Source: Candidatus Omnitrophota bacterium
GTDB lineage: Bacteria > Omnitrophota > Gorgyraeia > Duberdicusellales > 4484-171
Assembly: GCA_043823745.1 (NCBI GenBank)
Contig: JBDRAN010000044.1
Location: 853 to 64,852 of the forward strand
Direction: 5' to 3'
Length of the DNA stretch: 64,000 nt
Under the pieces are notes generated by a model. It did not search any database and was not told where the DNA came from. It saw nothing but the letters and a program-made list of their open reading frames with translations. A program made the position numbers and the translations under genes. This document shows, in pieces, positions 38,655 to 64,000 of this stretch. Each line of letters starts with the position of its first letter. Position 1 is the first letter of the stretch.

Positions 38655-38658
38655 TGGC

Positions 38659-39228: not shown

Positions 39229-39240
39229 ATCCCCTCCTTT

Positions 39241-40449: not shown

Positions 40450-40455
40450 ACGGTT

Positions 40456-42006: not shown

Positions 42007-42193
42007 GTATCTCCTTGAAAAATTTATTGCTCATCGGTATTCACCCGCGCGGCGAGGCTCAAAGCTTCGATGAGCGCATCTAAACCTTATGTCTTTCTGT
42101 ATCCGGTGCCCAGCGCCTATATGCACTATATTGTACAAGCCTCCCAATACGGGCAGATAAGAAGCGGTAATGATAAATATGCGCATAGAGTTT

Positions 42194-43747: not shown

Positions 43748-43804
43748 CGGGTATCTCCGTCGACAGGTACGCGATAATAGAAGAATATAAAACCGGTCCT
43801 CATG

Positions 43805-45250
43805 CTATTTCCTGCCCTCTTCCAGATATTCGGCGTCAATATTAATATTCCACAACACGTACGGAGCCCCCGGCAATTGCAGATAATTTCTCGCGGCAAG
43901 GATCCCGCTCATAAGCGAATGATCCTGATTATTATATTTATGCATGCCGGCGCGGCCGATAGAATAAAAATTATCGAATTGGTTAATCCTTGCTTTTAAG
44001 ACCTCGTAGGGCGCTTCGAAACCAATATAATAAAGGGGATATGCGTACGCTTCTCGGACAACCCAAAATTTATCTATCTCCTCGGCTTTAAGTAACCCCA
44101 TGCGCGATAATTCACTACTCGCTAGTTTTCTTAAAGAATCATCAGATTCGTTCCATAAACCCTGCCCGCGAGAAACAAAATATTCCGCACAGAGGGCTGT
44201 CATACCGGCAAACGGGACCATTGCCTTCGAAAAATTGTTGTAATTAGCTACCCGTGCCGTCTGCACTTCCGGAGAATGAACGTATATCCACTGGTCAGGG
44301 AATACATTTTCTCTTCGCACCAACAAATTCACCGAGATATGATCACGGTATCGTAGCATAGCTGCGGCCTTTCGTATATATTCTGGTTCCGGCGGATCGA
44401 AGATGGTAAAAAAACGAGCCATGGGAATACTACTGAAAAAATGTTGAGCCGTGATCGTTACCACGCGGGAATCCGGTTCCATAATATCTACGGAAACGAC
44501 CCTGGTATCTGAGCGATTGAGTTTGATAACCGTATGGTCAAGCATCAGCGTCGCCCCGCGCGACAGCACTTCGTCGCGCATAGCCTCGTACATCTGGCCT
44601 GAACCTAATACGGGGAAGTCGAATTCTTCGACCAACGTCTTAATTGTTGTATGCCGCCGGCCGCGCAACGCACGAACGATAACCGCAAGGCCGTCTAATC
44701 CTCTAATTCTCTGCGCAGCCCACTCTGCGCTGATCTGGCTGCAGGGGATTCCCCAGACTTTCTCCGTGTATGTTTTGAAAAATATTTCATAAAGTTTTCG
44801 CCCAAACCTTTGGCATATCCAATCCTCAAAGCTGGCAGAATCGCCATGCCTGTGGATTTGTGAAGAAAAAAAAGAGAGGGCCGCGCTCAACGATTCCTGA
44901 ACCCCCAACTTACGGAATACATCGGCGGCTTCTACCGGATAGTTAAAATATCGATTCTTATAGAATATGCGCGTCAGGCGCGATACGGGCCTGAAGTCTT
45001 TTCCCAGCATTTCATGCCATATCGTGTTAATCTCATTATTTTTCGTAAAAAAACGGTGGGGGCCGACGTCAAATCGTACCCCGTCATAAATTTCGGTCCT
45101 GGCAACTCCGCCCACGTATACATTCTTATCGATAATAAGGATATCCGTAACACCATGCCTGACTAGTTCCAAAGCCGCGCCCAACCCGGCAGGGCCGGCG
45201 CCGATAATGCAGCATTCATAATTCTTTTTATTTTCTTTCATGTGCTGCAT
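43805..45250 (-). CDS. NAD(P)/FAD-dependent oxidoreductase (amine-oxidase / UDP-galactopyranose-mutase-like fold).
   Basis: The N-terminus CCIIGAGPAGLGAALEL is a dinucleotide-binding motif. Length 481 aa. Confidence 0.6.
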   Translation of the reverse strand: MQHMKENKKNYECCIIGAGPAGLGAALELVRHGVTDILIIDKNVYVGGVARTEIYDGVRFDVGPHRFFTKNNEINTIWHEMLGKDFRPVSRLTRIFYKNRYFNYPVEAADVFRKLGVQESLSAALSFFSSQIHRHGDSASFEDWICQRFGRKLYEIFFKTYTEKVWGIPCSQISAEWAAQRIRGLDGLAVIVRALRGRRHTTIKTLVEEFDFPVLGSGQMYEAMRDEVLSRGATLMLDHTVIKLNRSDTRVVSVDIMEPDSRVVTITAQHFFSSIPMARFFTIFDPPEPEYIRKAAAMLRYRDHISVNLLVRRENVFPDQWIYVHSPEVQTARVANYNNFSKAMVPFAGMTALCAEYFVSRGQGLWNESDDSLRKLASSELSRMGLLKAEEIDKFWVVREAYAYPLYYIGFEAPYEVLKARINQFDNFYSIGRAGMHKYNNQDHSLMSGILAARNYLQLPGAPYVLWNINIDAEYLEEGRK

Positions 45251-45356
45251 CGCCGCGGCGGCGGATATTTTTGTGCGGATCTTTTCTTAATAATCTATAA
45301 CGGCTGCTGGATGGAAGCTGCATTGTGGTACCGCGGAAACAATATAAACTGTTTTA

Positions 45357-46892
45357 CTATTTTTTCCGTGCAACAAAAATCACATGCCCGGCAAACTCCA
45401 ACGGCATAACGGTAGTAATCCACTCCATGCTGAAACCATCCCCCCGGCCCAGGCGAAACCAAACAAAACTTATGAAATAACGTATAAACGCCAACGGCAG
45501 AAGCCAGAGGCGCGTAAGCGGAAGCGCTAAATCTGAGAGCGTCTTTCCTCCGTAACGCTGCAAGAATGTCCAGAGGATAAGCGCAAATCCTGAAATATCG
45601 GGAATAAGCACAATATCGGAAAATCCTTCGTCCTTAAGTATACGCTCAAGCACGACGTAACTCATACCGTATGTTGAATGGCCGTGGACCGGCTCCAGAA
45701 AAGAACTCGATCCGCACAGTACCCCTCCTGGTTCAAGCACGCGATAAATTTCTTTGAACGCGCAGGAGGGGTTGTTAAGAAGTGAGGTGACGGTCCAAAA
45801 AATAACACACGCTACTTTTTCTGAACCTATAGGAAGCGTATGGGCATCGCCTGCAATATGGAAGTGCGTTTGAGGATAGTCGAGACCGAACCATGTATAT
45901 CCCGCTTCTATTGCGGCCGCCCTATGCGGCCCCGTACCACAGCCAACATCAAGACAAATACCGTTTCCCGCAGGAAGAAAGTCACGGAGGTCATTCCATT
46001 GCAGGCTTCTTGAAAAAACTTTAAAATCTCTCAGGCGCCACCGGCGGTGCGATACCCCAAAGGGTGACGCGGGCTGGGAAACGATTGTATCATAACGCGC
46101 AGGGACTGTGTTCACTTCCCATATACGCTCAGCGGCTACACCTTTTCCTATATATACGGCATACTGCTTTAAACGCTCCCGGGCCTTCTTTTCCGTACCC
46201 CCCCACAAGCCGATTTGCGATCTGTAGCACAGAACCGCTTGTGCTTTAACGGCGAGGTTAATCGGGAACACGGAAGGCTTCCATAGATGAGCATCCTGAC
46301 GCAAGGAATATTTTTCTACACCGGGCCATGGGTCGTAATGACGAATATGTATGTCTGTACCGGTAAGCCGAGATACTGCCTGACAAACCAGGGCATGGTC
46401 AACGTGGCCGAAAGAATCGATGGGTAGATAGACAAAAGGAGTAAAATTCTCGATGCGTATCCGTTCAATACGCCGCTCCAGGAAAGAAATTATCTCAGCG
46501 GTCAACGCTCCATCATCATCCAAGGGGCACCCCGCAAGAACATCATAGGCACAATAGAGGGGCCTGCCCTCGTGTGTCCGCCGATACGGCGCCTCAATGA
46601 AATTGCAGTGCTCAAAGGAAACGCCAAGAAGGTTACACGCACGCATATCTTCTTCCTGCCGGCAACGGGTAACACTCCTGTTCCCTAAACCCCATTGTGC
46701 ATGAAGATGCCGGGCGAATGCACTCAAAGAAGGACTATCGGCACCTTGTGCAAATAGAGTAAGAACCGTAACCGCTTCGCCCTGCTGGCGTTGCGAATAC
46801 ATAAGCCCTCCGCAGGAAAGTATGGCGTCATCAAAATGAGGAGAAAGATACAAATGATACGGTCGGCGAGAAGAAACATGTTCTGTCATCAT
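45357..46892 (-). CDS. Fusion protein: N-terminal PIG-L/LmbE-family deacetylase plus a C-terminal class I SAM methyltransferase.
   Basis: HLYLSPHFDDAILSCGG is the PIG-L zinc-binding motif. CLDVGCGTGPH is MTase motif I. Confidence 0.7.
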   Translation of the reverse strand: MMTEHVSSRRPYHLYLSPHFDDAILSCGGLMYSQRQQGEAVTVLTLFAQGADSPSLSAFARHLHAQWGLGNRSVTRCRQEEDMRACNLLGVSFEHCNFIEAPYRRTHEGRPLYCAYDVLAGCPLDDDGALTAEIISFLERRIERIRIENFTPFVYLPIDSFGHVDHALVCQAVSRLTGTDIHIRHYDPWPGVEKYSLRQDAHLWKPSVFPINLAVKAQAVLCYRSQIGLWGGTEKKARERLKQYAVYIGKGVAAERIWEVNTVPARYDTIVSQPASPFGVSHRRWRLRDFKVFSRSLQWNDLRDFLPAGNGICLDVGCGTGPHRAAAIEAGYTWFGLDYPQTHFHIAGDAHTLPIGSEKVACVIFWTVTSLLNNPSCAFKEIYRVLEPGGVLCGSSSFLEPVHGHSTYGMSYVVLERILKDEGFSDIVLIPDISGFALILWTFLQRYGGKTLSDLALPLTRLWLLPLAFIRYFISFVWFRLGRGDGFSMEWITTVMPLEFAGHVIFVARKK

Positions 46893-47011
46893 AGCATATC
46901 CTCACAATTTTTGGTTTACGTGCTGTACTCAATATATTATTTTATCACGCAGGACGCAAGGAAAAATTGGCTACAACGTTACTTCGGAAACCGCTCGGCA
47001 ATGCGGTCTCA

Positions 47012-47040
47012 CGCACGCATGATATATTCTCATGCGTGCG
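47012..47040. other. Perfect 11-bp stem hairpin (cgcacgcatga/tcatgcgtgcg) 3' of the GT4 gene.
   Basis: The sequence was read directly. The loop is tatattc. No U-run follows on the coding (minus) strand. Confidence 0.4.
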
Positions 47041-47064
47041 CATACACCATGACAAACGATATGT

Positions 47065-48258
47065 TTATTTTTTAAGATGTTCATAAAGCGCAAGCATCTG
47101 GGCACAGATTTTTTCTGGAGTAAAATTGGTCATGACGTGCGTGCGGCCGGCCTGGCCCATACGTTGGCGAAGCTCGCGATCGCTCAACAGGCGCACTATC
47201 GCGCGAGCCAATTCCTGCACATTTTTTGGTGGCACCAGTATGCCGGTAACATTATCAAGGACTGTTTCGGGCAAAGCTCCGGATGCAGCCGCCACAACCG
47301 GCAAGCCAAAAATCATTGCCTCGATGCATGATATCGAGAATGTTTCAAAATATGACGGCATGACAAAAATCAACGAATTTTGATAAAGCTCGAAAACCTT
47401 CGACCATGCAAGATGGCCTCGAAGATCAAGGTAGGGTGCAATGCCCAGTTCCTTAATAGTTTTCTGCAACGTTTGCTGCGTTAAAGACATATGCCGGCCG
47501 CCCGCGAAGATAAACTTTACATCAGGATATTGCTCAATAACATAGGGGATGGCCCGCAGGAGGCATAGTATTCCCTTTCTATATTCCAGTCTGCCCGTAT
47601 AAAGAACCGTGGGTGCGCCATTGGTGGGCGACAGGGAGCGTGATACATGCGGAAGAAAATCCGCGTCTATCGGGTTTGGTATAACGCGTACTTGTTGTTC
47701 TGGGATACGCAGCTCACCAGCGATCTCACGTGCCTGGAAATGACTCGGCGCAACGATACAGGCGCATTTCCGTAAACACCAGCACTCTATCATTCTCGAT
47801 AGTTTATGGCCGAGGTATATCGCTTCGCCGCTGAATTTGCTCATCGTGACATACGATCCGTGTGTTTTAATCACCAGGGGTATTTTCTTTATAAAAAGCG
47901 TAATCAATAAATTTCCGGTTTCTGACGACTCGATAACATCAATGGGATGTTTTTTTAAAATCTTTCTGAGGGCAAACCAGGCGCTTAATGCCCACTCAAG
48001 CTGGCAAATGATTGCCGATATTCTTTTTCCTATAACGGGAACCTTATGCACATAATAGTGTATGTTGCCAAAGGGAACGCTATAGACTTTTACGCCCGCA
48101 GGATCGGAAAACACATGTTCCCCGGCAAAAGCTTTCGCGATAATTATGACGTTGTGTCCTGAGGAAACAAAATTTTGTGAAAGGGTTTTAAGATATGATG
48201 CTATCCCTCCCCCTCCTTCTGTCCGGTGATAATCAATAGAAATATAACAGATATTCAT
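47065..48258 (-). CDS. GT4 glycosyltransferase.
   Basis: FETFSISCIEAMIFGLPVVAAASGALPETV is an EX7E-type motif. Confidence 0.75.
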   Translation of the reverse strand: MNICYISIDYHRTEGGGGIASYLKTLSQNFVSSGHNVIIIAKAFAGEHVFSDPAGVKVYSVPFGNIHYYVHKVPVIGKRISAIICQLEWALSAWFALRKILKKHPIDVIESSETGNLLITLFIKKIPLVIKTHGSYVTMSKFSGEAIYLGHKLSRMIECWCLRKCACIVAPSHFQAREIAGELRIPEQQVRVIPNPIDADFLPHVSRSLSPTNGAPTVLYTGRLEYRKGILCLLRAIPYVIEQYPDVKFIFAGGRHMSLTQQTLQKTIKELGIAPYLDLRGHLAWSKVFELYQNSLIFVMPSYFETFSISCIEAMIFGLPVVAAASGALPETVLDNVTGILVPPKNVQELARAIVRLLSDRELRQRMGQAGRTHVMTNFTPEKICAQMLALYEHLKK

Positions 48259-48542
48259 AGCGTAGTAGGGGGAGTGTGAGTATCTTTGGTAATAATGAAA
48301 AAATAGTGCCCCGATAAGAAAAGCTTGACGGCGTTGATCCGCGCCGGGGAGCTAGCGCATAGACGACCTAAAAAATAAATAAGCTTATTAATAATCGTCT
48401 CTCGGTTTACAGTGACAAAGCGTTTACATCGAAAAAGGGAGATACCGAGTATTAAGGAAAAACAATCGATGCCGGGCCTGATTTCCTTGACGTTCAAAGA
48501 AGCGTTCTTGGCTAACACCCATAACCCATACGGCGTAATATT

Positions 48543-48974
48543 TCATAAGCTACGGGAGCGATAGGGTTCAAGTTGAGAAACCGATCCTATCACATAACCA
48601 TTATGTTTTAAAACCCGGGATAGTTCAGATAAAACAATGTGTGGCTTCTCAATATGCTTCAGGACATGGTCCAGCACTACCATATCAAAGCACTCGTCAG
48701 GAAACGGCAATCTCGTGCCATCGTACACAACAAACGATGCATCGAGCCTGCGCCGGACGGGGCTTTCAGGAGAAGCAAGAATATCGCACCCCACATAGGT
48801 TGACGGTATGTTCTTGAAAAAATCTACATACTTTCCTTCACCACATCCTAAATCGAGGATCCGGGGGCTGGTCATGTTTTTCAAATACCCGTGGAGAATA
48901 TCACGCACGGATTCTATGCGCGCGCAATCATCGCGAACAAGGTCTCTTATCTCGGTATCAAGAAAATTAAACAT
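48543..48974 (-). CDS. Small class I SAM-dependent methyltransferase.
   Basis: ILDLGCGEGKY is motif I. Length 143 aa. Confidence 0.7.
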   Translation of the reverse strand: MFNFLDTEIRDLVRDDCARIESVRDILHGYLKNMTSPRILDLGCGEGKYVDFFKNIPSTYVGCDILASPESPVRRRLDASFVVYDGTRLPFPDECFDMVVLDHVLKHIEKPHIVLSELSRVLKHNGYVIGSVSQLEPYRSRSL

Positions 48975-49009
48975 GCTTTTCCTCTACAATCAAAAAACGC
49001 ATAATCAAA

Positions 49010-50062
49010 TTAACAATTCAGTATAAACTTCAGCTCATGGACATATGTCTTGTCGTATTGGCCATCCATATCCTTAAGAGCATCGTAAGCGTCTTTGGCA
49101 ACACGCGCGCGTAACGGTGGATTTTTCTTTAGCAATCTTTTAGCCGACGCATCATAACCGAATTCAATTATGTCCGCGCCGATTTCTTTTGCTTTTCTGA
49201 TAAATAAGGCGATTTCATGAAGGTTTTCAGGCACGATAGTCATATGAAAAAGAACTTTACAATCTTTATTCAGGGCTTTCGCTATTCGTTTTATCATGAC
49301 GATATTCGCTAATACCTTTTCGAAACAAGAACCTCGATTAATTTTCTCGTGAGTTTCTTTTGTTGCCGCGTTAAGAGACACATTATACGATTTTGAATAC
49401 TGCACGATCATCCGTGCGAGGCGCTCATTCATGATTGTCCCATTCGTAATAAAGGAAACATCGCACCCCTTCTCTCCATAAAACCGAAATGCCTCTATTG
49501 CGCCCGGCATAAATAAAGGTTCGCCTCCCTGTATTACGACTGTCGTCGCGGCTGTCACCGGTATTTTATCTTTAATTTTCTCAAAGTCTAAAACCGGTAT
49601 GCTTGTATCCTGGCCCCGCTGCGGACACATAATGCAACTAACATTGCAACGTTCGCCGAACAAAAGCCAGATTTTGCGTAACTTGTCGGGCGCTACGCTC
49701 AAGGGAGGGCGCTGCGGCAAATCATACTGCCGCGAAGCAATGTAACATGCGCGCCGACAATGAAGCGCGCCGGCCAAACACCTCTTCCGAGATATTTTCA
49801 TCCTGCGAGAGTTCCATATTTCTGCCCACGAGTCTCGATAAATATTCCCGACGATCTCGGGCATATAATGGCAGCACGCATACACGTCGCCTAAGTAATT
49901 GATAAAAGTTTCTTCCCAGAGATGATGACAATATCTAATCGTATCTGGTTTCAGATAATACCGTAATCTCCAAAAATCACGAATATACCGTAAGCAGACA
50001 ATGAGGGGTTTATTCTTTTTCAAAATAAAAACTAATTTATTCTGTACGCGCTTAATCTGCAT
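49010..50062 (-). CDS. Radical SAM protein with an N-terminal Cys-rich region.
   Basis: ERCNVSCIMCPQ is a Cx3Cx2C motif. It is preceded by about 130 aa containing 7 Cys (CHH..., ACCHY, CLAGALHCRRAC). Confidence 0.65.
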   Translation of the reverse strand: MQIKRVQNKLVFILKKNKPLIVCLRYIRDFWRLRYYLKPDTIRYCHHLWEETFINYLGDVYACCHYMPEIVGNIYRDSWAEIWNSRRMKISRKRCLAGALHCRRACYIASRQYDLPQRPPLSVAPDKLRKIWLLFGERCNVSCIMCPQRGQDTSIPVLDFEKIKDKIPVTAATTVVIQGGEPLFMPGAIEAFRFYGEKGCDVSFITNGTIMNERLARMIVQYSKSYNVSLNAATKETHEKINRGSCFEKVLANIVMIKRIAKALNKDCKVLFHMTIVPENLHEIALFIRKAKEIGADIIEFGYDASAKRLLKKNPPLRARVAKDAYDALKDMDGQYDKTYVHELKFILNC

Positions 50063-50156
50063 GGTTCTTACGCTGTATATTCGTGCAATAAAAATTATGG
50101 AAACATCACGGTGACGGACACCGTATGTTCAGGACGTGCAAGAAATAACCCGACCT

Positions 50157-52103
50157 TTACTTAGTATATGGTTCATGGGACAAGCGCGCAAAGAGACGAC
50201 GAAACCATGTATATAGCGCCCTTACCGTCGCATACCTGTCCGCGATACGTTTTAATGTATATCGTAGGTATTTGTTTTGCAACGTTTCTATTTCTTCTGC
50301 GGTCCAATGCCCCATTTTCAACTCGCAGCCAAGACAATCAAAGTATGGCTTTTTACGATTTACATGCCTACGGACACCTCTAAATTTCTTAGTATTCCAG
50401 AGAGCAATAAATCGTTCTCTCCCCGTCTTAAGTTTTGCGAGGTCGAGCTCTCTGCAACAACAGGAAATAGTACCGCGGCTATCAATGGCCACGCACGTCC
50501 ACGGTAAATAGCAAGCTATTAATTCCTTACGTGCGACGCCGATGCCGCTATTCTTCTTTTCGGGATTATACTTGTCTTTAAAAGTTATCGTTATCGGTAT
50601 TCCTGTCTGTTGAGATTTTTCCTCAAACTTTCTTATATAGGAAACGGTCTTCTGGGGGTCCTGCCAGAGGCACTCCCTCTCTTTCTCCTTTGTGAATGCT
50701 GTAAATTCTCTAAACAGAATTTTATCGACACCTATGTCTTTCAGGGCAAACACATCCATTAAATTCTCAAGATTACTCAGCATAACGCAAATAGCCAGAA
50801 CGATAAACGGCTTATTTTTTTTCTTTTCTTTTCGGTACTCCGCGATCAGTTTTATATTTTCTGCAATCTTTTCCCAAGGAAAATGCCTCGTTCTTGAATA
50901 AGCCTCGCCTATTCCCTCAACACTTATCTCCAGCGCATCAACATTCTCAGCAATGATATCTGCTTTTTCACGATCAAGCAGAGTAAGATTGGTAATAAGC
51001 GAAACCTCTTTTAGATGAGCATTATTTTTCCTGTCCAATATCTTAAAAAAATACTTAAAATCTTTGGAGAATAAGGGTTCCCCTATGTCCGCCCCCCCAA
51101 TTCTTACGTATTGACAATGAACCAGGATATTCTTCACGATATATTCCAAGAACTCTCGTGGCATATCCGTTGCTATGCCCGGCCGATCAGCTTCTGAGCA
51201 ATGCCAGCAACACAAGTTGCATCGTGAAGTGAGCGAAATCATTGCCTTTTCAGGGTAATCATACGAAAACGTATTGCCTGAATCATATTTTTGATTATAC
51301 TGCTGTGCCCAAAATTGGGGTTCATTGTTAGTCGTCGTGGGTGCAGCAGATAGCTGCATACGTTTCTCGCATTTTTGAGATCCATAAAAATACCGGCGTA
51401 TTCTGTGTGTAATTTTCTTTACCAAGGTAACCATTTCTCCTTTATATACATGCCTGGTTGCAGAATACAGTGCCCGGAAACGGTGAGCACCACCTGCGTT
51501 CTGATGTAGCGAATTACGCATAACAAACGATTGTTGATGAAACTCCCTGCTATGACTGCCCTCTGCTCTTTTGGTGAAGATAGCAGCTCGCTGAGGTATG
51601 CTTTTAATTAATTTCCACTCAGCTTCCAAACAAAGGAATTCCTCCAAGACTTTGCCTGTCCATATGTTCGTATCATCAACGATCAAGATGCCGCCGGTTT
51701 TCAATCCTGATGAAGCATAATACCAGTCGATAAAGGGGGTAGGAAATGCATGGCGACCGTCGATAAGTACCAAATCAAGATCTTTAAGTTGTAAGTGCGG
51801 CAATGCGTCTTCTGATTTTTGTACCTGAAAATTGATCTTTTCAAGTGAAATATTTCTGTTTTTACAATAGGTCACAATATTGATAACCTCTTTTTCATTC
51901 GGCGTAATACAGATATGGTGTGTCCCTCGAAGCGCAAAAACAATCGTACTAAGCCCTGCACCGGTTTCCAAAGTTTTTGAGGTTTCATCCACCGCATCAT
52001 AAATATATTGCGATAATGCGCGCACCAATTTGAAAGGAACAGGACTATCCGGCATGTCGCCTGGCAGGGCATACATCTCGTTTAAAAATTCATCAATGTT
52101 CAT
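50157..52103 (-). CDS. Fusion protein: N-terminal class I (TylF/MycF-like) SAM methyltransferase plus a C-terminal radical SAM domain with a SPASM-like Cys cluster.
   Basis: The N-terminus has TGAGLSTIVFAL ... LIDGRHAF. A mid-protein SRCNLCCWHCSE motif is Cx3Cx2C. The C-terminus has SCCCREL and FDCLGC. Confidence 0.65.
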   Translation of the reverse strand: MNIDEFLNEMYALPGDMPDSPVPFKLVRALSQYIYDAVDETSKTLETGAGLSTIVFALRGTHHICITPNEKEVINIVTYCKNRNISLEKINFQVQKSEDALPHLQLKDLDLVLIDGRHAFPTPFIDWYYASSGLKTGGILIVDDTNIWTGKVLEEFLCLEAEWKLIKSIPQRAAIFTKRAEGSHSREFHQQSFVMRNSLHQNAGGAHRFRALYSATRHVYKGEMVTLVKKITHRIRRYFYGSQKCEKRMQLSAAPTTTNNEPQFWAQQYNQKYDSGNTFSYDYPEKAMISLTSRCNLCCWHCSEADRPGIATDMPREFLEYIVKNILVHCQYVRIGGADIGEPLFSKDFKYFFKILDRKNNAHLKEVSLITNLTLLDREKADIIAENVDALEISVEGIGEAYSRTRHFPWEKIAENIKLIAEYRKEKKKNKPFIVLAICVMLSNLENLMDVFALKDIGVDKILFREFTAFTKEKERECLWQDPQKTVSYIRKFEEKSQQTGIPITITFKDKYNPEKKNSGIGVARKELIACYLPWTCVAIDSRGTISCCCRELDLAKLKTGRERFIALWNTKKFRGVRRHVNRKKPYFDCLGCELKMGHWTAEEIETLQNKYLRYTLKRIADRYATVRALYTWFRRLFARLSHEPYTK

Positions 52104-52201
52104 TGGATTTATAATTTTTTAACGAAAAATTCCATATTACGGGGCATGGCGCGGTAAAATATGAGTTATATCAATGGAAACGCAGGATGCCTCGTCGAGT
52201 C

Positions 52202-54292
52202 TCACTTCGATTCCATACTATGCGCGCCAGAAAACAGCTCGCGCCGAAGGAATAAAGACCTTTTTGTGAAAGGAACTTCTAATTTTAAAAATCCCGCCGC
52301 ATTCGGATTATCGAGAAATTCTTTGCGTTCACTGGCTTCAAATCGTATGGATTGTTTTAGAAGCCCGGTTGCCAATACCATATTTATTTCATGTTGCTTC
52401 ATAAAAGCAGTAAAAGACTCATTCGTACCGACTCCCATGAGGCTTGTATAATTATCTCCTACGTAAATATCGAATTTACCTTCTGCCGTCAGTAAATTGA
52501 CTTTATCGCGTATCCGCAGTAACTTTATAAACTCTAGTGTCTTTAGATTGCCCTGCCAGTCATGATGCATTCTTTGCGTAGTTATCTTTTTTGGCATCAA
52601 ACCAAAGGAATATCCTACGCCTGAGGGATGCTCCACAATCGGATACGGCGTGAGTAATACTATACAAAGGCCTGTCGCAAAGGCTTTGACTACCCCCGGC
52701 CGCTGCATACAAACATTTTTGTTAAAAGCATGTGAGGCGAAATACGCGATAAGAATTATTATAATCGTGAGTTGCAAAATAAGGTAATGCTCTCGGGGAT
52801 AGACTACGAACGCTGACAGCATACTAGCCGCGGAGACCAGCAGCAAAACAACACCAAGATGTTTAAGGAGAGTATAATCGATGGTTCGAACAATACGTCT
52901 TCTCGCGACTACCAAACAGATACCAAGCGCCCCCAGAAAGAGGACATAGAATAACCGCATCACGGTATCCAGCGGCCGCCAACAGGAAGGATTGGGCTTT
53001 ATTAATAGCAATTGCATCAACGTTGGAGTATACCGATATACGTTATAGAAGACATGCCGCAAAAATTCTTTCGGATTATTCAATATTGCCGTAACAACAG
53101 TATTGGCATTACCAAAGGCACTTTTTGTAATGTCTACCCAGACCTCCCACGGGTCAACCAGACTATGGTGCCGCTGAACATAATTGATACTGAAATGCTG
53201 GGCAAATGACAGCCAGCTTTTGGCAATGGTAGTATGATCGCCTGTCAAACGTATCGGTTCATACGGCTTAGACTCCCACAAGGGATTACCAAAAATAGCA
53301 ATCATCGCGACGCCGATCAAGACAAAAGAAAATATTTTACTCAGGTGCAGACACGGCTTTCCAGATATTTTCACCGATGCTCGTAAATACCAAAACAGCG
53401 CAAGCGCACCCAGAAGAAGAAGTGAAACAAAATATTCTGGCCTAACGAAAGAAACCGTTAAGATGCCCAATCCCAGTATATAGTAATAATTTTCCTTTGA
53501 TGTGGTGAAGGTGGCAAGGATAAGGAACAGGAGAAAGATCGACAACGCATAAAGGGTAACCCACGTATTATCCCATCGAAAAACTCCTGACATCAAGAAT
53601 AAGAAAGAAGCAAGGGCCGAGATGAAAGGCATGACGTGGAGCCGTCTCAGGTAAATATAGAGCAACAGCGTTGTCGAAGAAACCAAGATTTTAAAATTCA
53701 TATAATAGAGTTGCACATAATCTTTACTGAAAAAAGACAATACAAAATACCAAACCGCATACAAAGGCGCCCACTGCGCATGCGGTAGCCCCTTAATCGG
53801 CAGCTTGATGCCTCTTTGTAAATAATACGTCTCATCCCAAAGGCTGATATCCATGATCGCTTCAGCGGAGTAGGTATATTTCATTACCGCAAGCATAAGA
53901 AATAAAAAGACAATTATGTCGACGCCTAATATCTTAACCATTGAACGCCGCTCCGGTGTAACGGACACCGCAGCACCATCGATGTCTACCGGGCCCCCAT
54001 GGCAGGAGGTTTTAACGGTACGCAAGAAATAAAGAATCATACATAGAAAAAAATAGACATAAACACTTACGAAAAGCGCCTGCTGGCATATCTCATCTCC
54101 TATCGCATAGTAATGTTCCAACGAATACAGCAACTGCGCTTCAATGACCCTATTCAAGAAACCAAACGACTCGCCGTGATACATCGCGGCGATGAGTTTA
54201 TGGCCAAAGCAGAGATATAAAAACCATCCCGTCAAGAGCAACGCAAGTAACGGCGACAGAGGGAGCGCTAATTTTTTTTTATCGTTGAACAT
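52202..54292 (-). CDS. Large polytopic membrane protein of unknown function (possible GT-C-like or polymerase).
   Basis: 696 aa with more than 12 predicted TM helices and an acidic motif (DISLWDETYY) in an early loop. There is no soluble catalytic motif. Confidence 0.4.
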   Translation of the reverse strand: MFNDKKKLALPLSPLLALLLTGWFLYLCFGHKLIAAMYHGESFGFLNRVIEAQLLYSLEHYYAIGDEICQQALFVSVYVYFFLCMILYFLRTVKTSCHGGPVDIDGAAVSVTPERRSMVKILGVDIIVFLFLMLAVMKYTYSAEAIMDISLWDETYYLQRGIKLPIKGLPHAQWAPLYAVWYFVLSFFSKDYVQLYYMNFKILVSSTTLLLYIYLRRLHVMPFISALASFLFLMSGVFRWDNTWVTLYALSIFLLFLILATFTTSKENYYYILGLGILTVSFVRPEYFVSLLLLGALALFWYLRASVKISGKPCLHLSKIFSFVLIGVAMIAIFGNPLWESKPYEPIRLTGDHTTIAKSWLSFAQHFSINYVQRHHSLVDPWEVWVDITKSAFGNANTVVTAILNNPKEFLRHVFYNVYRYTPTLMQLLLIKPNPSCWRPLDTVMRLFYVLFLGALGICLVVARRRIVRTIDYTLLKHLGVVLLLVSAASMLSAFVVYPREHYLILQLTIIIILIAYFASHAFNKNVCMQRPGVVKAFATGLCIVLLTPYPIVEHPSGVGYSFGLMPKKITTQRMHHDWQGNLKTLEFIKLLRIRDKVNLLTAEGKFDIYVGDNYTSLMGVGTNESFTAFMKQHEINMVLATGLLKQSIRFEASERKEFLDNPNAAGFLKLEVPFTKRSLFLRRELFSGAHSMESK

Positions 54293-54311
54293 AGAGCGAT
54301 ACGTATCGAAG

Positions 54312-55439
54312 CTAGAAATTTGGATTGAAAACCTTCATCATACGTATTATTTCCCGGGAAACAATGATATTGATGAAATGCTTTAATTGTATTATCCACT
54401 TGCTACAGAATTCTTCCGTGGTCATCAATGTTCCCCCCACCATGATCATTGATGTGCCGACGGGTAAACTATCTTTCATAGAGAGAGCCTTGAGAACATG
54501 CTTCGGCAATATTTTCTCCATACAGTTTTGCTTTGTCAATCCTTTCTCGCACAATCGGAGTCTATATGATCTCTGGCATGGGCTGCACGACGTTGACGAA
54601 GTAATCGAAATAGATTTACCCTCTCTGCCTACCCAGGGATGCAGCAGAACGGGAGAAGAAGTGCCGTGTAATGAAATAATCGGCACTCCGCTGACTGCGG
54701 CAATATGCATTGCGCCGTGATCGGTGGTGATGAGCACATTGAGCTGTTGACATAAGCCGATAAATTCTTGTATCGAGGCCGTACGTTGGTATGAACAGCC
54801 CGTTAATGACACTATTTGTTCCATATTCGACCAATCACATGCTGCCCCCACGACGACAACATTTTCTTTGCCGAGTGAAGCAATAAGCGTTTGCCAGTGG
54901 CCCAGCGGCCAGCTTCTATTCTTTTTTGCCTGGAATTCAGTTTGCGCCGTATATATGCAACAACCTATTTTATTTTTATGTTCGGCGAACAAAGCGTAAG
55001 ATGGACGGGGGCAATAAAGCGCAGGGGTCTCGCCCGTATAGCCGATACGCCTGAGGAGCTCCATATTCAATTCTACCTGGTGCTTCTCAAAAAGCATATG
55101 CCGATACGCTGCAGTGACTTTTTTCTTCCAGCGTTGCGGTTCAGTCGGATACAAATGGCTCAATTCTATATAGCATTTGGCCTTTTTAGCGCATTCCTTG
55201 ACTGCGTCGGCACAGGAAAAAACCGGCATTACCGCCATATCATAGCCGGAAAGATCGAGTCCATCGGTAAATACAGCCGTGTGATCAAAAAGATTAATTC
55301 CTTCAAGCACCGGGTGATTGTTTCTTTCAGAAACTACATCGAGCGTTTCCTGAGGATACAGCCTGCGCAATGCGGCATACAACGGAGTTGCCATAATCGT
55401 ATCGCCGATCTCTTGAGGCGCAAAGGTAACAATCTTCAT
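54312..55439 (-). CDS. GT9 glycosyltransferase (LPS heptosyltransferase family).
   Basis: The N-terminus has MKIVTFAPQEIGDTIMATP. The ITTDHGAMHIAAVSGVPIISLHG motif matches the GT9 consensus D-[ST]-G-x-M-H-[IL]-A-A. Confidence 0.75.
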   Translation of the reverse strand: MKIVTFAPQEIGDTIMATPLYAALRRLYPQETLDVVSERNNHPVLEGINLFDHTAVFTDGLDLSGYDMAVMPVFSCADAVKECAKKAKCYIELSHLYPTEPQRWKKKVTAAYRHMLFEKHQVELNMELLRRIGYTGETPALYCPRPSYALFAEHKNKIGCCIYTAQTEFQAKKNRSWPLGHWQTLIASLGKENVVVVGAACDWSNMEQIVSLTGCSYQRTASIQEFIGLCQQLNVLITTDHGAMHIAAVSGVPIISLHGTSSPVLLHPWVGREGKSISITSSTSCSPCQRSYRLRLCEKGLTKQNCMEKILPKHVLKALSMKDSLPVGTSMIMVGGTLMTTEEFCSKWIIQLKHFINIIVSREIIRMMKVFNPNF

Positions 55440-55499
55440 CGTGGATTTATACGTTTAACGAGCACATAATACTGTGCCCTTTCATGCTTTACCATAGCT

Positions 55500-56483
55500 T
55501 CAGAAGATTTTTTTGCTGCTGTTTTTCTCTTTCGGTGAAGCTCGGTTTTGAACGATCAGCATACGAATTTCTGTTATGGCGCGGCCTATCGCCCGTATGC
55601 TTTCCAAAAAATTGACAGCTGCCTTTTTGCCATTCACGATCGCATAGAACAATCCTTTCCCGCTATACCACAACGAACATCGCATGTCATAAAGCGCTTT
55701 TTTAAAAAGCGCGATATTGTCGGTGCATTCATTTCCAAAATCAAGATAGACCTCTGTTACGCCGTCCCAAAAAATCCGTTTAGCCAGCCATGTTAATCGT
55801 TGCCGCTCTTGCGGAACTACATGATATACTATTTGTTTTGGATTGTAATAAATCTTTGCTCCCGACGCATAAAGCCTATGGTACATATCATTGTCCTCTC
55901 CGGAAAGAAGGCATGTCCCTTTCCTGCCTAGATATGTTCTAAAGCCGCCCGTACGCAAAAAGAATTCCTTATGAAAAGCCGCATTTACCGTGATCAGATA
56001 ATCATCTGCCCCGAGATAGCAGGGCTCATTGCCAAAATCATATTTACCTACTATAGTTTCATATTCGACAGGAAATTGCTTGCGTCGGGCGCCTTCCCAG
56101 GCAAGCTCCACTTTCCCCACTACGCAGGCGGGACTAGGTTGTACGGTCGTAAAAACCTGGACAATCTGAGTAAGCCATTCCGGTCCTGGTAATGCATCAT
56201 CATCAATGTATGCGATATATTTCCCACAAGCTTCATAAGCGCCGCGATTACGGGCATAGGCGATACCTTGCTGTTTTTCGAGACAATACGTAATGGCTAC
56301 CTGTGTTTCCTTGCGTACCGTTCCTACAACATCCCGCGTCGCATCGCTTGAATTATTATCAACAACAAGAATATCGAAACAGAAATCAGCCTTTTGTGCG
56401 GCCAATTCTTTGAGCAAACGCTCAAGGAACATAGAGCGGTTATACGTACAGATAATTATAGTAGTTAAAACATCCTGTTCCAT
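55500..56483 (-). CDS. GT2 glycosyltransferase.
   Basis: LTTIIICTYNRSMFLERLLKELAAQ, with ...VVDNNSSD and DD motifs. Confidence 0.75.
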   Translation of the reverse strand: MEQDVLTTIIICTYNRSMFLERLLKELAAQKADFCFDILVVDNNSSDATRDVVGTVRKETQVAITYCLEKQQGIAYARNRGAYEACGKYIAYIDDDALPGPEWLTQIVQVFTTVQPSPACVVGKVELAWEGARRKQFPVEYETIVGKYDFGNEPCYLGADDYLITVNAAFHKEFFLRTGGFRTYLGRKGTCLLSGEDNDMYHRLYASGAKIYYNPKQIVYHVVPQERQRLTWLAKRIFWDGVTEVYLDFGNECTDNIALFKKALYDMRCSLWYSGKGLFYAIVNGKKAAVNFLESIRAIGRAITEIRMLIVQNRASPKEKNSSKKIF

Positions 56484-56666
56484 AGCAATTATGACGGTAC
56501 AGCGACGTGCCGGGTCTCGAGAACCTTTTCAATAAATTCTTTGGAACCAACCATAGATCATTCTTCTTTCTTACTAGCTTTTTTGTAGCCGACTGATTTT
56601 AAGCCGTTGCACACACCGTTCTCGATACTTCGCAGATCAGGGCGCACTACCAAGTGTTACGTGCTT

Positions 56667-58229
56667 CTAATGTATCCGTAGATATCTCGATTTCATTTTG
56701 CAAAGAATACCATCGATATACGAAAATCTGATGACTTTCCGCAGCGGTTCATACATAACAAAAAAACTCAGTATGCTTATGGCGGAATTTGCAAGCAGGG
56801 GCAACCGTTGGTTGATGAATCGATAAAACGCAATACAGGAATCGGTGACCAATGCTCTCGGCACATAACCGATTCTGAAATCATTGGCATCGCCTTCCAT
56901 TAGTAATATTATCCAATGGAACAATTTATGTGGTAGCGCTTCCTCTTTAAGAATCAAATATCCGACGGCAGAACCTGTGTGTTTGATTCGCGTGCGCACA
57001 TGAAGGCCCGCAGCATGCGCACGCTCATACAACTTTGTTCCCGGATAAAACGCCAAACTATTATGATAGAGGTAAAAAGGAGGCGGCAGCCTTTTTATCA
57101 ACTGGATGGTAGCAACAATATCTTCCTCGCGTTCAAACGGATTCATTCCGATAAAATCATAATAAATCTGTATAGTACGATATCGGGAAAGCGTTCGTGC
57201 TACCTCCAGAATTTTTCCAGTCGCTATGGGACGATCATAGATCGCACGATTGGTATGCTCGCTACCGCTCTGCACACCGACAATGACTTCACTCATCCCT
57301 GCCTCAAGAGCAAGCTTTAGCTTTTCCTCATCGAACGTCCAGGGCGAAATAAGAATAAGAAAAGGCTTATGGATTGCCGATGGGTACATGCGGACAAACT
57401 CCGCAAGTTCGTAAAAACCTTTGTCGAAAAAAGTATCGTCACTAAACCAAAAACTTTCTATTTCAGGGTAATGATTGCATATTTCCTTTAAATGATTAAT
57501 AATGTAATCGACCGAATAATGCCGGACCCGCGCGCGCCAGGGAAAACGTTCCTTAAGCGTCTGGTTCGAACAGTAGGCGCATCGATGCGGGCAGCCGCGT
57601 GAACCTTGGATAGGAAAATGTATGTACTCAGCATGCCAGGAGCCGCTTTTCTGTGCTTTCATGGGTATGAGCCGATTGTTTTCGAGGATAAACTGGTGAG
57701 ATATATCATAATCAGGAAATGGATAATCGTTAATATCTCTCTGAAGCGGACAGGCCTGATTCCTGATAATATCATTGTGTTGTTTTATCCATAAGCCCGC
57801 AACATCCTGGTATGATGCGCCGTGACATATGCGCTCTGCCAATGTTACGAGCATATCTTCGCCTTCGCCGCAACAAACCAGATCAAAAAAGTTCAGAAGA
57901 CTCTCCGGGTCTGCCGAAGCGTGAGCCCCACCGACAATGATGGGAGCCGGTAATTCTCTTTCAAGAATTTGTTTTACTTCAATCGCCTTCGCGACGCTAT
58001 GCGTCATGCATGAAATTCCTATAAGGCAGGCATCGCTACATATTTCCTTAAGATCATTCCAATGAAACCCATTATCGCCTGGCGCAAACGTCTGCATAAA
58101 CACAATCGTGCTGCTGAATCCCGCCTGAAGAAGGCACGAAGAAAGCGTCCGTACGCCGGTACCGGTGATGCATTCATCGGTACTTATGAGTACAATGCTC
58201 CGTGATTTTTTTCTCGGGTCCATATTCAA
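56667..58229 (-). CDS. B12-binding-domain radical SAM protein (class B).
   Basis: SRGCPHRCAYCSN is Cx3Cx2C. An N-terminal Rossmann-like cobalamin-binding region is present (IVLISTDECITG). Confidence 0.75.
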   Translation of the reverse strand: MNMDPRKKSRSIVLISTDECITGTGVRTLSSCLLQAGFSSTIVFMQTFAPGDNGFHWNDLKEICSDACLIGISCMTHSVAKAIEVKQILERELPAPIIVGGAHASADPESLLNFFDLVCCGEGEDMLVTLAERICHGASYQDVAGLWIKQHNDIIRNQACPLQRDINDYPFPDYDISHQFILENNRLIPMKAQKSGSWHAEYIHFPIQGSRGCPHRCAYCSNQTLKERFPWRARVRHYSVDYIINHLKEICNHYPEIESFWFSDDTFFDKGFYELAEFVRMYPSAIHKPFLILISPWTFDEEKLKLALEAGMSEVIVGVQSGSEHTNRAIYDRPIATGKILEVARTLSRYRTIQIYYDFIGMNPFEREEDIVATIQLIKRLPPPFYLYHNSLAFYPGTKLYERAHAAGLHVRTRIKHTGSAVGYLILKEEALPHKLFHWIILLMEGDANDFRIGYVPRALVTDSCIAFYRFINQRLPLLANSAISILSFFVMYEPLRKVIRFSYIDGILCKMKSRYLRIH

Positions 58230-58284
58230 AATACGTTTCCCTATGCCGCTTAAGCCCGCTCGGCAGTGCCGCGGTTGCTGTACA

Positions 58285-59769: not shown

Positions 59770-59849
59770 CGTTATACCACCTTCTTAATGCGTTTCGTTC
59801 TCATACAACAATGTAGTTTAAACGTTATAGGTAATGACCCCGGACACGG

Positions 59850-61091: not shown

Positions 61092-61117
61092 GTGTAATAC
61101 ATTGCAACAAAAATTAT

Positions 61118-62164: not shown

Positions 62165-62263
62165 ACGCCCCTACAACTTGATCATACGTTTCATGCTCAC
62201 TGGAGAATACTACGAGCACAAGATCTCGTGATTCTAGGGTATATACGGAAACAATGGCTCCGG

Positions 62264-63505: not shown

Positions 63506-63521
63506 TTGTTATTGATGCATA

Positions 63522-64000
63522 CTAGCGCATCTCTTTTGCATTATCAATGCGGGTTCCGACAAGAAGACGAAAGAGCAGTGCCACATGGTTTCGACATGGC
63601 GCATTCACCGACAACAACAGCAGTGAAACAAACCCATACTGTAATGCCAAGTACCGATGGCCTAATCTATATTGTTCTTCCGCGCGCGCGTAAAAGGAGA
63701 GTGATTTTTTTTGCCACTGCACTTTATTAAACGAATACCAATAAAAGTAATACGCCGGCGTCAACATGCTACCCCAGTATTTCTGACTGATTCTCATACG
63801 CTCAGCGAACCATTTTTTTTCAGCGGTTTGACTTAATTGCAATATTGATTTCGATGAAGAATGAAATCGATATACCGCTAAAACTCTATCCAGATAACAG
63901 AAACGGTACCTGCTGCTTAATCGTATCCATAAATCATAATCCATAGAGTAATGCAGCGTTTCATCGAGAAGGCCCACGTTATCAATAGCTTCCCTGGAAT
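63522..64000 (-). CDS. GT2 glycosyltransferase, C-terminal part only. The gene continues beyond the window end.
   Basis: The DYDLWIRL motif is typical of the C-terminal region of GT2 enzymes. The frame is open to the window edge. Confidence 0.5.
   Translation of the reverse strand, partial: SREAIDNVGLLDETLHYSMDYDLWIRLSSRYRFCYLDRVLAVYRFHSSSKSILQLSQTAEKKWFAERMRISQKYWGSMLTPAYYFYWYSFNKVQWQKKSLSFYARAEEQYRLGHRYLALQYGFVSLLLLSVNAPCRNHVALLFRLLVGTRIDNAKEMR

Follow-up and report, generated by a model that had tools for sequence, protein, structure and literature searches.

A single open reading frame joining a class I methyltransferase to a Twitch-type radical SAM enzyme in a surface-polysaccharide locus of an uncultivated Omnitrophota bacterium

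The window, by which we mean the whole stretch of 64,000 nucleotides analyzed here, contains a co-directional surface-polysaccharide locus of about 50 kb that includes export genes (Table 1). The genes in this locus include Wza, Wzc, two Wzy_C, Bac_transf, Polysacc_synt_2, DegT, a hexapeptide acyltransferase, and PMT_2, together with more than ten glycosyltransferases (GT4, GT2, and GT9), several class I methyltransferases (MTs), a PIG-L+MT fusion, and three B12-radical SAM genes. The radical SAM enzymes of the locus number five in all. One of the genes encodes an MT half followed by a radical SAM half, and it is flanked by spacers of 94 and 98 nt. The next gene downstream is a circularly permuted paralog, in which Pfam SPASM is found at aa 45-94 and Radical_SAM at aa 135-289. 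BLASTP aligns its core (110-301) with aa 266-464 of the fusion protein and its N-terminal region (45-102) with aa 531-593. The permuted paralog also adjoins the ortholog in L008, the closest relative.

Table 1 Positions of the polysaccharide locus, the fused gene, and its parts within the window
Feature	Window positions	Strand	Details	Source
Co-directional surface-polysaccharide locus, including the fused gene	14185..63977	-		Pfam scans of 40 ORFs; ORF map
Next downstream gene, circularly permuted paralog	49010..50062	-	Twitch/SPASM-like Cys motif first, radical SAM core second	
Whole fused gene	50157..52103	-	648 codons + stop, one product of ~75 kDa	ORF list
Class I SAM methyltransferase domain, aa 1-198	51510..52103	-	Methyltransf_24 subfamily	Pfam PF13578
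Native MT-family C-terminal helical tail, aa 199-245	51369..51509	-	Basic, amphipathic	
Fusion junction, aa 246-262	51318..51368	-	KCEKRMQLSAAPTTTNN-EP	BLASTP of L009 pair vs fusion
Radical SAM core, aa 263-520	50544..51317	-	CX3CX2C, C295/C299/C302	Pfam PF04055
Twitch-type domain (putative auxiliary cluster), aa 521-600	50304..50543	-	C531-x12-G544-x4-C549-C550 ... C590-x2-C593	
C-terminal long basic amphipathic helix, aa 601-648, + stop	50157..50303	-		AF2

The fused gene is an uninterrupted open reading frame (ORF) that starts with ATG, and neither a frameshift nor a stop codon is present between the two halves. Among minus-strand ORFs of at least 60 aa, only a single out-of-frame ORF of 66 aa is otherwise found within it, and the GC contents of the two halves are alike (0.419 and 0.415). 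The full 648-aa product is deposited at NCBI (MFH1876759.1, on a 65,204-bp contig; 100% identical), where PGAP calls a single CDS and the annotation is just "radical SAM protein". In a second assembly (GCA_018827245.1), a 2425-bp contig spans the junction (window 53359-50935) with zero gaps, and all six of its mismatches fall in the opening 51 nt, where the contig ends; the partial copy of the fusion protein in this assembly is MBU2102925.1. The sequence-only reading had proposed a single polypeptide and had raised, as the alternative, two separate genes split by an unnoticed frameshift. One frame, two deposited assemblies, and one PGAP CDS bear out the former and speak against the latter, and the strings quoted in that reading are all present in the translation: ETGAGLSTIVFAL (aa 46-58), LIDGRHAF (113-120), CNLCCWHC (295-302), SCCCREL (547-553), and FDCLGC (588-593). 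We regard it as highly probable that the fused gene is genuine, intact, and derived from an uncultivated Omnitrophota bacterium.

The MT half is a class I Rossmann methyltransferase of the Methyltransf_24 subfamily. Pfam Methyltransf_24 (PF13578) matches aa 45-145 (E 3.7e-8; 34.6 bits against a cutoff of 26.3) over profile positions 1-105 of 105. The recognizable motifs are motif I TLETGAGLST (aa 44-53), IDGRH (114-118), and VDD (142-144). All 14 invariant columns of the family are kept (E46, G48, G50, H63, S97, D115, G116, H118, F120, P121, D126, G138, D143, and W163), the first three of them in the Gly-rich LETGAGLST of motif I. The AF2 model of this half (pLDDT 88.6) has a seven-stranded Rossmann fold (strands 43-47, 62-67, 90-94, 109-114, 134-143, 163-169, and 173-178), and its best Foldseek matches are nearly all SAM-dependent methyltransferases (TrmR, Rv0187, CCoAOMT-type O-methyltransferases (OMTs), and MeT1). 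The last of these, mycobacterial MeT1 (6G80), is a sugar O-methyltransferase. The model and these matches settle in the affirmative whether the N-terminal half folds as a class I enzyme. The earlier assignment to a TylF/MycF-like class I methyltransferase holds for the class and fails for the family, since TylF PF05711 gave no match up to an E-value of 1 and TylF/MycF are absent from both the PDB profile matches and the top 50 Foldseek matches. A scan against NCBIfam matched no model.

The MT half is closest to the cation-dependent CCoAOMT/Rv0187/TrmR-type O-methyltransferases, and cation dependence is predicted. The MT family profile matches 6JCL in the PDB (E 1e-4), and Pfam PF01596 (Methyltransf_3) scores 14.9 bits, under its cutoff of 22. 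In the profile alignment to 6JCL, D115 corresponds to the first Asp of 'IDAD' and D143/D144 to 'DN', candidate counterparts of the CCoAOMT metal triad (Asp/Asp/Asn). This subfamily has no evident acidic residue where strand 2 ends, a position at which the closest solved OMT does have one. Fusions also occur among relatives of the MT half, with GT2, sulfotransferase, TPR, or other MT domains as partners.

The second half is a radical SAM enzyme that bears a CX3CX2C site and a Twitch-type domain. Pfam Radical_SAM (PF04055) matches aa 289-430 (E 1e-15; 58.7 bits against a cutoff of 29.5), and the CX3CX2C site, C295-NLC-C299-WH-C302 (window 51198-51221), is kept in at least 90% of 24 relatives. 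The earlier recognition of a radical SAM core is borne out. A further core motif, IGGADIGEPL, lies at aa 335-344, and the family alignment conserves C295, C299, H301, C302, G336, G337, and E342. The confident AF2 model (pLDDT 89.6, pTM 0.85) predicts a radical SAM barrel and a Cys-rich C-terminal domain, with Foldseek matches to SuiB, anSME, SkfB, BlsE, DesII, viperin, MoaA, and BtrN, many at a probability of 1.00. None of the NCBIfam models attains its cutoff with this half. The best NCBIfam match is W_rSAM_matur TIGR04317, the tungsten-cofactor oxidoreductase maturase; this identity was rejected, as the score of 92.5 bits is far under the cutoff of 380 and the core alone is matched.

Full SPASM domains (PF13186), which hold two auxiliary clusters, carry a seven-Cys motif, CX9-15GX4C ... 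CX2CX5CX3C ... C. Across 24 members of the family of the radical SAM half, C531, C549, C590, and C593 do not vary, and C550 is kept in 90% or more. The CX2CX5CX3C block is absent: past C531-x12-G-x4-C549 there is only the CX2C of C590 and C593, with no CX5C or CX3C. Pfam SPASM at aa 531-593 (E 6.8e-4) scores 20.3 bits, just below its 21.5-bit cutoff, and on these two grounds a two-cluster SPASM identity was discarded. [quoted passage not shown] What had been read as a SPASM-like Cys cluster thus keeps its auxiliary-cluster motif and loses the second cluster.

Both halves are encoded as separate genes in another Omnitrophota genome (MAG GCA_028713415.1, L009), where contig JAQTOI010000027.1 carries a 245-aa MT24-like MT followed by a 389-aa radical SAM protein (MDD5194876.1) in the same order and orientation, within a similar glycan locus (PIG-L+MT, B12-radical SAM, GT4, and hexapeptide transferase). 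The MT is 51% identical to aa 1-240 of the fusion protein without gaps, and the radical SAM protein is 52% identical to aa 263-637; that both halves have diverged almost equally is consistent with their co-evolution. Unlike the one ORF of the fusion, the pair is interrupted: the MT gene ends in a stop codon, and a spacer of 63 nt with a strong Shine-Dalgarno motif of its own (AGAGGAGA) follows. The BLASTP matches of the pair to the fusion stop at aa 240 for the MT and start at aa 263 for the radical SAM protein, so that the junction stands in place of the stop codon, the spacer, and the first codons of the split ortholog. The tail of the MT half aligns gap-free with that of the separate MT through aa 240 and is also present in standalone members of the MT family. 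For the most part, the linker between the halves is the helical tail with which MT family members end, plus about 17 new residues. AF2 places helices at aa 199-220 and 224-252 in this region, the latter with a hydrophobic moment of 0.61 and a net charge of +7. At the other end of the protein, a single helix is predicted at residues 342-382 of the C-half (aa 602-642; hydrophobic moment 0.54, net charge +5). The fusion protein as a whole has no transmembrane segment. As judged from these alignments, the fusion arose from two formerly adjacent genes.

It is improbable that the fusion exists in name only, through recent loss of a stop codon, a MAG consensus artefact with two proteins still made, or decay of one half. 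Two products could result from internal initiation, for example at Met249 (ATG 51357-51359), which lies within the junction about where the old radical SAM start would fall and is possibly a relic of it. The fusion is also limited to one species-level population (two near-identical records, to which the database searches added no more), and the gene of the closest relative (L008, 65%) ends at a contig edge, with an in-frame stop 5 codons from that edge. However, the two separately deposited assemblies match base for base over the junction, the invariant residues of both families are all intact, and GC is homogeneous. Further, the junction is in frame, and the spacer and its Shine-Dalgarno motif are gone. 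No Shine-Dalgarno-like motif precedes Met249, which is not decisive because several bona fide genes of this genome also lack one. The net difference from the split pair is about 36 nt, and the change is therefore not a single point mutation.

Neither a word-indexed search over 5.8 billion clusters nor exhaustive HMMER searching of 1.84 billion representatives turned up a second protein containing both halves, and the 90% clusters of the ten closest radical SAM relatives contain no other fused copy. The architecture, previously described as uncommon, thus has no other example in the billions of sequences searched. Orthologs of the radical SAM half were also compared by gene context. Carbohydrate genes are present in five of seven informative contexts. 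A class I MT is fused or directly adjacent in four of the seven, and three have no adjacent MT. The MTs paired with this radical SAM clade belong to three different MT Pfam families. Since MTs are common in these loci, chance alone would give four of seven about 5% of the time (a rough estimate). The case that both halves would act on a common substrate is strengthened by the split but adjacent ortholog pair in a related genome.

The radical SAM family profile identifies BtrN as the best solved relative in the PDB (E 2.4e-13, covering core and Twitch). BtrN, a Twitch radical SAM enzyme, serves butirosin biosynthesis as the 2-deoxy-scyllo-inosamine dehydrogenase. It oxidizes a carbohydrate-like aminocyclitol and has one Cys4-ligated auxiliary cluster (PMC9012708, PMC10337720). 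In a single-sequence PDB search the E-value of BtrN is 0.56-0.62, such that the match is significant at the profile level only. Foldseek ranks BtrN 46th, at 12% identity, below the peptide-modifying SPASM enzymes SuiB, CteB, anSME, and SkfB. Because BtrN is remote and these enzymes rank above it, the carbohydrate substrate class stays putative. Orthology to BtrN as a DOIA dehydrogenase was rejected, given the remote, profile-level match and the absence of aminoglycoside genes from the window in Pfam scans of the ORFs.

The Foldseek ranking raises the question of a peptide or protein maturase of the RiPP type, in which the radical SAM half would crosslink or epimerize a peptide and the MT half would methylate it. 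The best fold matches are indeed RiPP maturases (SuiB, CteB, and SkfB), YydG/EpeE is the best single-sequence PDB match, and many NCBIfam near-matches are peptide maturases. However, the family profile favors BtrN above every peptide maturase, no RRE (RiPP-recognition) domain precedes the radical SAM core, and no precursor-peptide ORF, protease, or RiPP transporter lies nearby, the flanking spacers being short. All neighbors are polysaccharide genes and the ortholog contexts are rich in carbohydrate genes, making this function very unlikely. Scarcely more probable is a non-glycan envelope or small-molecule target, for instance a lipid or a metabolite that resembles a cofactor, for a gene merely embedded in the polysaccharide locus. 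One ortholog (P0038 in L005) is surrounded by unrelated genes, Twitch radical SAM substrates are very diverse, and a lipid substrate could suit the amphipathic helices. These points are set against the operon-like, tight co-directional packing with glycosyltransferases, the synteny with the same tailoring genes in L008, and the similar gene content in L009.

Taken as a whole, the evidence is best explained by a bifunctional glycan-tailoring enzyme made by fusing adjacent genes, to which we assign a probability of roughly 0.55; glycan tailoring as such is a likely role of the protein. In the proposed reaction, the radical SAM half would reductively cleave one SAM, and the 5'-deoxyadenosyl radical would take a hydrogen atom from one of the carbons of the sugar. 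The radical so formed on the substrate could then pass an electron to the auxiliary cluster, so that a secondary alcohol is oxidized by two electrons to a ketone in the manner of BtrN. Alternatively, the near-invariant Cys550 could return a hydrogen atom, resulting in epimerization. The MT half would use a second SAM to O-methylate, by polar chemistry and probably with the help of Mg2+, a hydroxyl of that sugar residue, with D115/D143/D144 as candidate metal ligands. The short tether (about aa 253-285) would set a 1:1 stoichiometry and pass the intermediate between the sites, and the two basic amphipathic helices may keep the enzyme at the membrane surface, the site of lipid-linked glycan assembly. 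The specific radical reaction is doubtful in this form.

A stronger version, which we consider a long shot, is an obligatorily coupled radical and polar change of a cell-surface sugar, in which the Twitch radical SAM half would oxidize, epimerize, or in some other way activate a sugar carbon of a lipid-linked or polymeric glycan and the Rossmann domain would at once trap or complete the product by methyl transfer; its extreme would be a B12-independent radical C-methylation with a Rossmann methyl relay. As a function in its own right, cobalamin-independent radical C-methylation would have the Rossmann domain charge Cys550 or a substrate oxygen, for example, with a methyl group, which the radical SAM half would then place or shift by radical chemistry on a sugar carbon that is not activated. 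Such an enzyme would be compatible with the presence of two SAM sites in a single chain, the near-invariant extra Cys adjoining a cluster ligand, and the repeated pairing of this clade with class I MTs of three families. Yet the idea is pure analogy, and we know of no enzyme that works in this way. The three B12-radical SAM genes of the locus could already carry out C-methylation, and an adjacent MT is absent in three of seven orthologs, leaving this extremely unlikely.

While the fusion is real and rare, its chemistry is something that we infer. Hardly any studies address radical SAM enzymes within O-antigen, capsule, or EPS loci, and a literature search on them and on the MT-radical SAM architecture found nothing. 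The fusion and the split pair together constitute Rosetta-stone evidence that an uncharacterized Twitch radical SAM clade cooperates with an uncharacterized Methyltransf_24 clade. For experimenters they provide a ready bifunctional construct, its two-protein control, and a handful of residues to mutate. Were the coupled reaction true, this would be the first family of Twitch radical SAM enzymes to be assigned a part in assembling surface polysaccharides, and it would open a new way of making rare methylated sugars. If the chemistry is ordinary, with independent O-methylation and oxidation, it is a neat but minor case of gene fusion. In Omnitrophota, modules of sugar metabolism and of radical SAM chemistry tend to be joined within multi-enzyme proteins (bioRxiv 10.64898/2026.06.07.730766), and the fusion is a small, tractable further example of this tendency.

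Among known systems, BtrN (PDB 4M7T/4M7S) and the radical SAM half both have a CX3CX2C site whose last Cys follows an aromatic residue, and the only four Cys in the matched BtrN residues 163-245 (C169, C187, C232, and C235; 4m7s_A alignment) align with C531, C549, C590, and C593. The stretch before the Twitch domain is about 260 residues in the radical SAM half versus 150 in BtrN, a much longer barrel, and the fusion protein, unlike BtrN, has a further conserved cysteine (Cys550), a C-terminal helix of 40 residues, and the N-terminal methyltransferase. The N-terminal half has its Rossmann fold and motif I in common with Rv0187 (6JCL), SafC (5LOG), TrmR (5ZW3), MeT1 (6G80), and, distantly, TylF/MycF. 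However, His118 is found at the position of the catalytic Lys of the CCoAOMT type, and the family has its own two-helix C-terminal tail. Another Omnitrophota MAG (JBAZJY010000003.1, 7948-9894) encodes a protein, also of 648 aa, in which a GT2 glycosyltransferase is fused to a related radical SAM core (24% identity). This gene is in a glycosyltransferase-rich locus, two genes from an ortholog of the radical SAM half with a Methyltransf_25 gene between them. It differs from the fusion in having a glycosyltransferase, not a methyltransferase, as the partner and in its C-terminal Cys pattern. Cobalamin-dependent (class B) radical SAM methyltransferases, of which the locus has three, likewise use SAM as both methyl donor and radical source on one chain. 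They do so with a B12-binding domain and one active site, whereas the fusion protein has no B12 domain and carries a complete, independent Rossmann methyltransferase.

The proposal from the sequence-only reading, a methyltransferase (MT) of TylF/MycF type fused to a SPASM-like radical SAM (rSAM) domain, is supported overall, with revisions to the MT type, to Twitch versus SPASM in the auxiliary domain, and to the linker, which is mostly a native MT tail. The protein is encoded by a single reading frame with Pfam matches in both halves, and all strings originally quoted were recovered: ETGAGLSTIVFAL at residues 46-58, LIDGRHAF at 113-120, the CX3CX2C motif CNLCCWHC at 295-302, SCCCREL at 547-553 and FDCLGC at 588-593. 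A 2425-bp contig (L001) from GCA_018827245.1 ('Candidatus Omnitrophica bacterium') matches window positions 53359-50935 without gaps, and its six mismatches are confined to the contig end (first 51 nt), so the sequence from MT through the junction to rSAM is identical in both. A full 648-aa product with 100% identity is present at NCBI (MFH1876759.1, annotated merely 'radical SAM protein'), and GC content is alike in the two halves (0.419 and 0.415). On the strength of these agreements the fusion is not the product of a hidden frameshift; a pseudo-fusion yielding two products is unlikely.

Coordinates of the fusion gene, its Pfam domains and other genes discussed (window positions unless stated)
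Feature	Position	Strand	Details
Fusion gene	50157-52103	-	one ORF, ATG start, 648 codons
Methyltransf_24	fusion aa 45-145		E 3.7e-8, above cutoff
Radical_SAM	fusion aa 289-430		E 1e-15
SPASM	fusion aa 531-593		E 6.8e-4, 20.3 bits, slightly below the 21.5-bit cutoff
Permuted rSAM paralog	49010-50062	-	350 aa, directly downstream of fusion gene
PIG-L-type de-N-acetylase + Methyltransf_11 fusion	45357-46892	-	511 aa
B12-binding rSAM	30401-31975	-	
B12-binding rSAM	56667-58229	-	
B12-binding rSAM	58285-59769	-	
Polytopic membrane protein	52202-54292	-	696 aa, ~11 hydrophobic segments
Polytopic membrane protein	42194-43747	-	517 aa, ~8 hydrophobic segments
FAD/NAD(P)-binding amine-oxidase-like protein	43805-45250	-	NCBIfam NF005548 (PRK07208), 545 bits vs cutoff 389
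GT2-rSAM fusion	L012 (JBAZJY010000003.1, Omnitrophota MAG) 7948-9894	+	648 aa

The likely precursor arrangement is preserved in the Omnitrophota MAG GCA_028713415.1 (L009), where MT and rSAM are separate neighbouring genes in the same orientation. The MT (245 aa, Methyltransf_24-like) is 51% identical to fusion residues 1-240 without gaps, the rSAM protein (389 aa) is 52% identical to residues 263-637, and a stop codon and a 63-nt spacer carrying a strong Shine-Dalgarno sequence (AGAGGAGA) lie between them. Since this MT aligns as far as residue 240, the 'linker' of the fusion is mostly the native C-terminal tail of the MT family, which is also present in standalone members and forms two helices (199-220 and 224-252) in the AF2 model of the fusion. 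Judged by these alignments, the newly acquired residues number only about 17 (246-262), and Met249 may be a relic of the former rSAM start. The closest relative of the rSAM half (P0032, 65% identity) is in the syntenic locus L008 (JAQUOR010000070.1), its gene truncated by the contig end. At L008 positions 1-15, it has an in-frame stop at the position of Cys330, 5 codons from the contig end, which could be a contig-end error or mark a pseudogene.

Across 5.8 billion 90%-identity clusters, searched by word index, both Pfam domains were found in one protein only in the cluster that covers the fusion. When 1.84 billion 50%-identity representatives were searched exhaustively with HMMER, none of the 150 best matches (all E 9e-33 or better) had both halves; each matched one. 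Among these were about 24 standalone rSAM-half proteins (216-476 aa) and many Methyltransf_24-type MTs, mostly standalone (150-340 aa) and some joined to other domains. Short representatives in such searches may hide longer members, as a 390-aa one does for the 648-aa fusion; for the ten closest rSAM relatives, no longer member was present in the 90% clusters. Scanning GTDB species genomes and JGI metagenomes added 31 loci, mainly from Omnitrophota; across the scanned loci the MT subfamily is next to rSAM only in L009 and L011 and fused only in L001. The fusion is an undescribed, lineage-restricted joining of a pre-existing gene pair, with both domains from known superfamilies.

The 14-64 kb portion of the window is a single polysaccharide locus. 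It includes genes for export and assembly (Wza (Poly_export/SLBB), a Wzc-like GNVR + P-loop protein, two Wzy_C), initiation and sugar precursors (Bac_transf, Polysacc_synt_2 dehydratase, DegT aminotransferase, hexapeptide transferase), glycosyl transfer (five GT4, five GT2, three GT9, PMT_2) and tailoring (three B12-rSAM, several class I MTs, the PIG-L + MT fusion and the permuted rSAM paralog). The genes across 3286-63977 (~60 kb) are all encoded on the minus strand, separated by short spacers. Along the window the cumulative GC skew declines steadily, plus-strand ORFs are limited to its left end (17-817, 870-1295, 2202-3097), and positions 1-2000 have a GC content of 0.335, against 0.42-0.49 in the remainder.

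Five rSAM enzymes are encoded in the locus, three B12-binding and two Twitch-type. The paralog beside the fusion is circularly permuted, with a Twitch/SPASM-like motif (C45-x12-G-x4-C63C64 ... C95, C102, C106) ahead of the CX3CX2C core (C139/C143/C146); by BLASTP its core matches fusion residues 266-464 and its N-terminus 531-593. It scores 61.7 bits against NCBIfam NF033640 'N_Twi_rSAM', under the cutoff of 170, and is kept beside the ortholog in L008. The three B12-rSAM genes all score below every NCBIfam cutoff, with HpnJ, BchE, ApyD and PhpK-like as the best partial matches. The first of them (GTG start) overlaps the upstream GT2 ORF (31822-32892, minus strand) by 154 nt, and its true start is probably downstream of the first in-frame start codon. 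The PIG-L + Methyltransf_11 protein is found again, at 510-511 aa, in L008 and L009, two related Omnitrophota loci, making it a second, conserved tailoring-enzyme fusion. Neither of the two membrane proteins, both amid glycosyltransferases, is matched by Pfam or NCBIfam; they may be GT-C or polymerase-like proteins that have gone unrecognised. The amine-oxidase-like protein, whose model is still named 'hypothetical protein', has an N-terminus similar to UDP-galactopyranose mutase and is kept in L008.

Seven contexts of rSAM orthologs (identity at least 37%) were informative. Carbohydrate genes are present in five. A class I MT is fused or directly adjoining in 4/7, with partners of the Methyltransf_24 (window and L009), Methyltransf_23/11 (L006/L007) and Methyltransf_25 (L012) types; this pairing is suggestive, with a rough chance probability of ~5%, since MTs are common in polysaccharide loci. 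In L012, a GT2-rSAM fusion (GT2 at residues 13-139, rSAM core at 319-455, CNLSCRHC at 323) is two genes downstream of a 47%-identical rSAM-half ortholog, with a Methyltransf_25 gene in between. A 2026 preprint reports that Omnitrophota often have long multi-enzyme proteins in which Pfams of sugar metabolism are joined to radical SAM ones (10.64898/2026.06.07.730766).

Most likely, the fusion enzyme is bifunctional and tailors glycans. Its rSAM half would take a hydrogen atom from a sugar carbon, and the substrate radical would be resolved either via the auxiliary cluster, in a BtrN-like oxidation, or by hydrogen return from Cys550, giving epimerisation. O-methylation of a hydroxyl on that same sugar residue would fall to the MT half, and fusing would secure both the stoichiometry and the passing of the intermediate between the halves. 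The fusion contains two amphipathic helices, both basic (hydrophobic moments 0.61 and 0.54, net charges +7 and +5), and no transmembrane segment, which would fit a peripheral membrane enzyme with lipid-linked glycans as substrates. A RiPP-type maturase, a radical C-methylase with methyl relay and an enzyme with a substrate other than a glycan are each unlikely. The chief worth of the fusion lies in pointing, in the manner of a Rosetta stone, to radical SAM chemistry in the tailoring of surface polysaccharides.

The METHYLTRANSFERASE half is a seven-stranded Rossmann domain in the AF2 model (pLDDT 88.6) and retains 14/14 invariant columns of its subfamily. Its Foldseek neighbours are TrmR, Rv0187, CCoAOMT-type plant OMTs, a Leptospira OMT and Mycobacterium hassiacum MeT1, and the family profile matches Rv0187 (6JCL), SafC (5LHM/5LOG) and an 'OMT family 3' protein (E 1e-4 to 3e-3). 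The TylF/MycF label holds only for fold and clan; neither protein is among the matches, and the half is Methyltransf_24/CCoAOMT-like. Aligned to Rv0187, D115 falls on the 'IDAD' motif and D143/D144 on 'DN', whose Asp/Asn positions we take to be the CCoAOMT metal triad; these residues would then equal that triad, with H118 in place of the catalytic Lys. In other proteins, relatives of the MT half are joined to GT2, sulfotransferase (PF13469), TPR and other MT domains; the half acts like a tailoring module that is mobile.

The rSAM half is modelled confidently by AF2 (pLDDT 89.6, pTM 0.85). Foldseek matches it to the SPASM/Twitch enzymes SuiB, CteB, anSME, SkfB, BlsE, DesII, MoaA, SpeY and BtrN at TM 0.45-0.6, none of them standing out, and every NCBIfam model falls well short of its cutoff. 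In an alignment of 24 family members, the core C295, C299 and C302 are conserved, C531, C549, C590 and C593 of the auxiliary domain are invariant, and C550 is present in at least 90%. The auxiliary pattern is C-x12-G-x4-CC ... CxxC, and the CX2CX5CX3C block of full SPASM domains was not found in the fusion. Among solved structures, the family profile matches BtrN best (E 2.4e-13, the two matched stretches spanning core and Twitch), although the fusion is not filed as its ortholog. The four invariant auxiliary cysteines align to the sole four cysteines in BtrN residues 163-245. BtrN is a Twitch enzyme with one Cys4-ligated auxiliary cluster that carries out a two-electron oxidation with 2-deoxy-scyllo-inosamine as substrate (PMC9012708, PMC10337720). 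Given the cysteine pattern and this alignment, the domain is assigned to the Twitch type rather than SPASM, probably with one auxiliary cluster.
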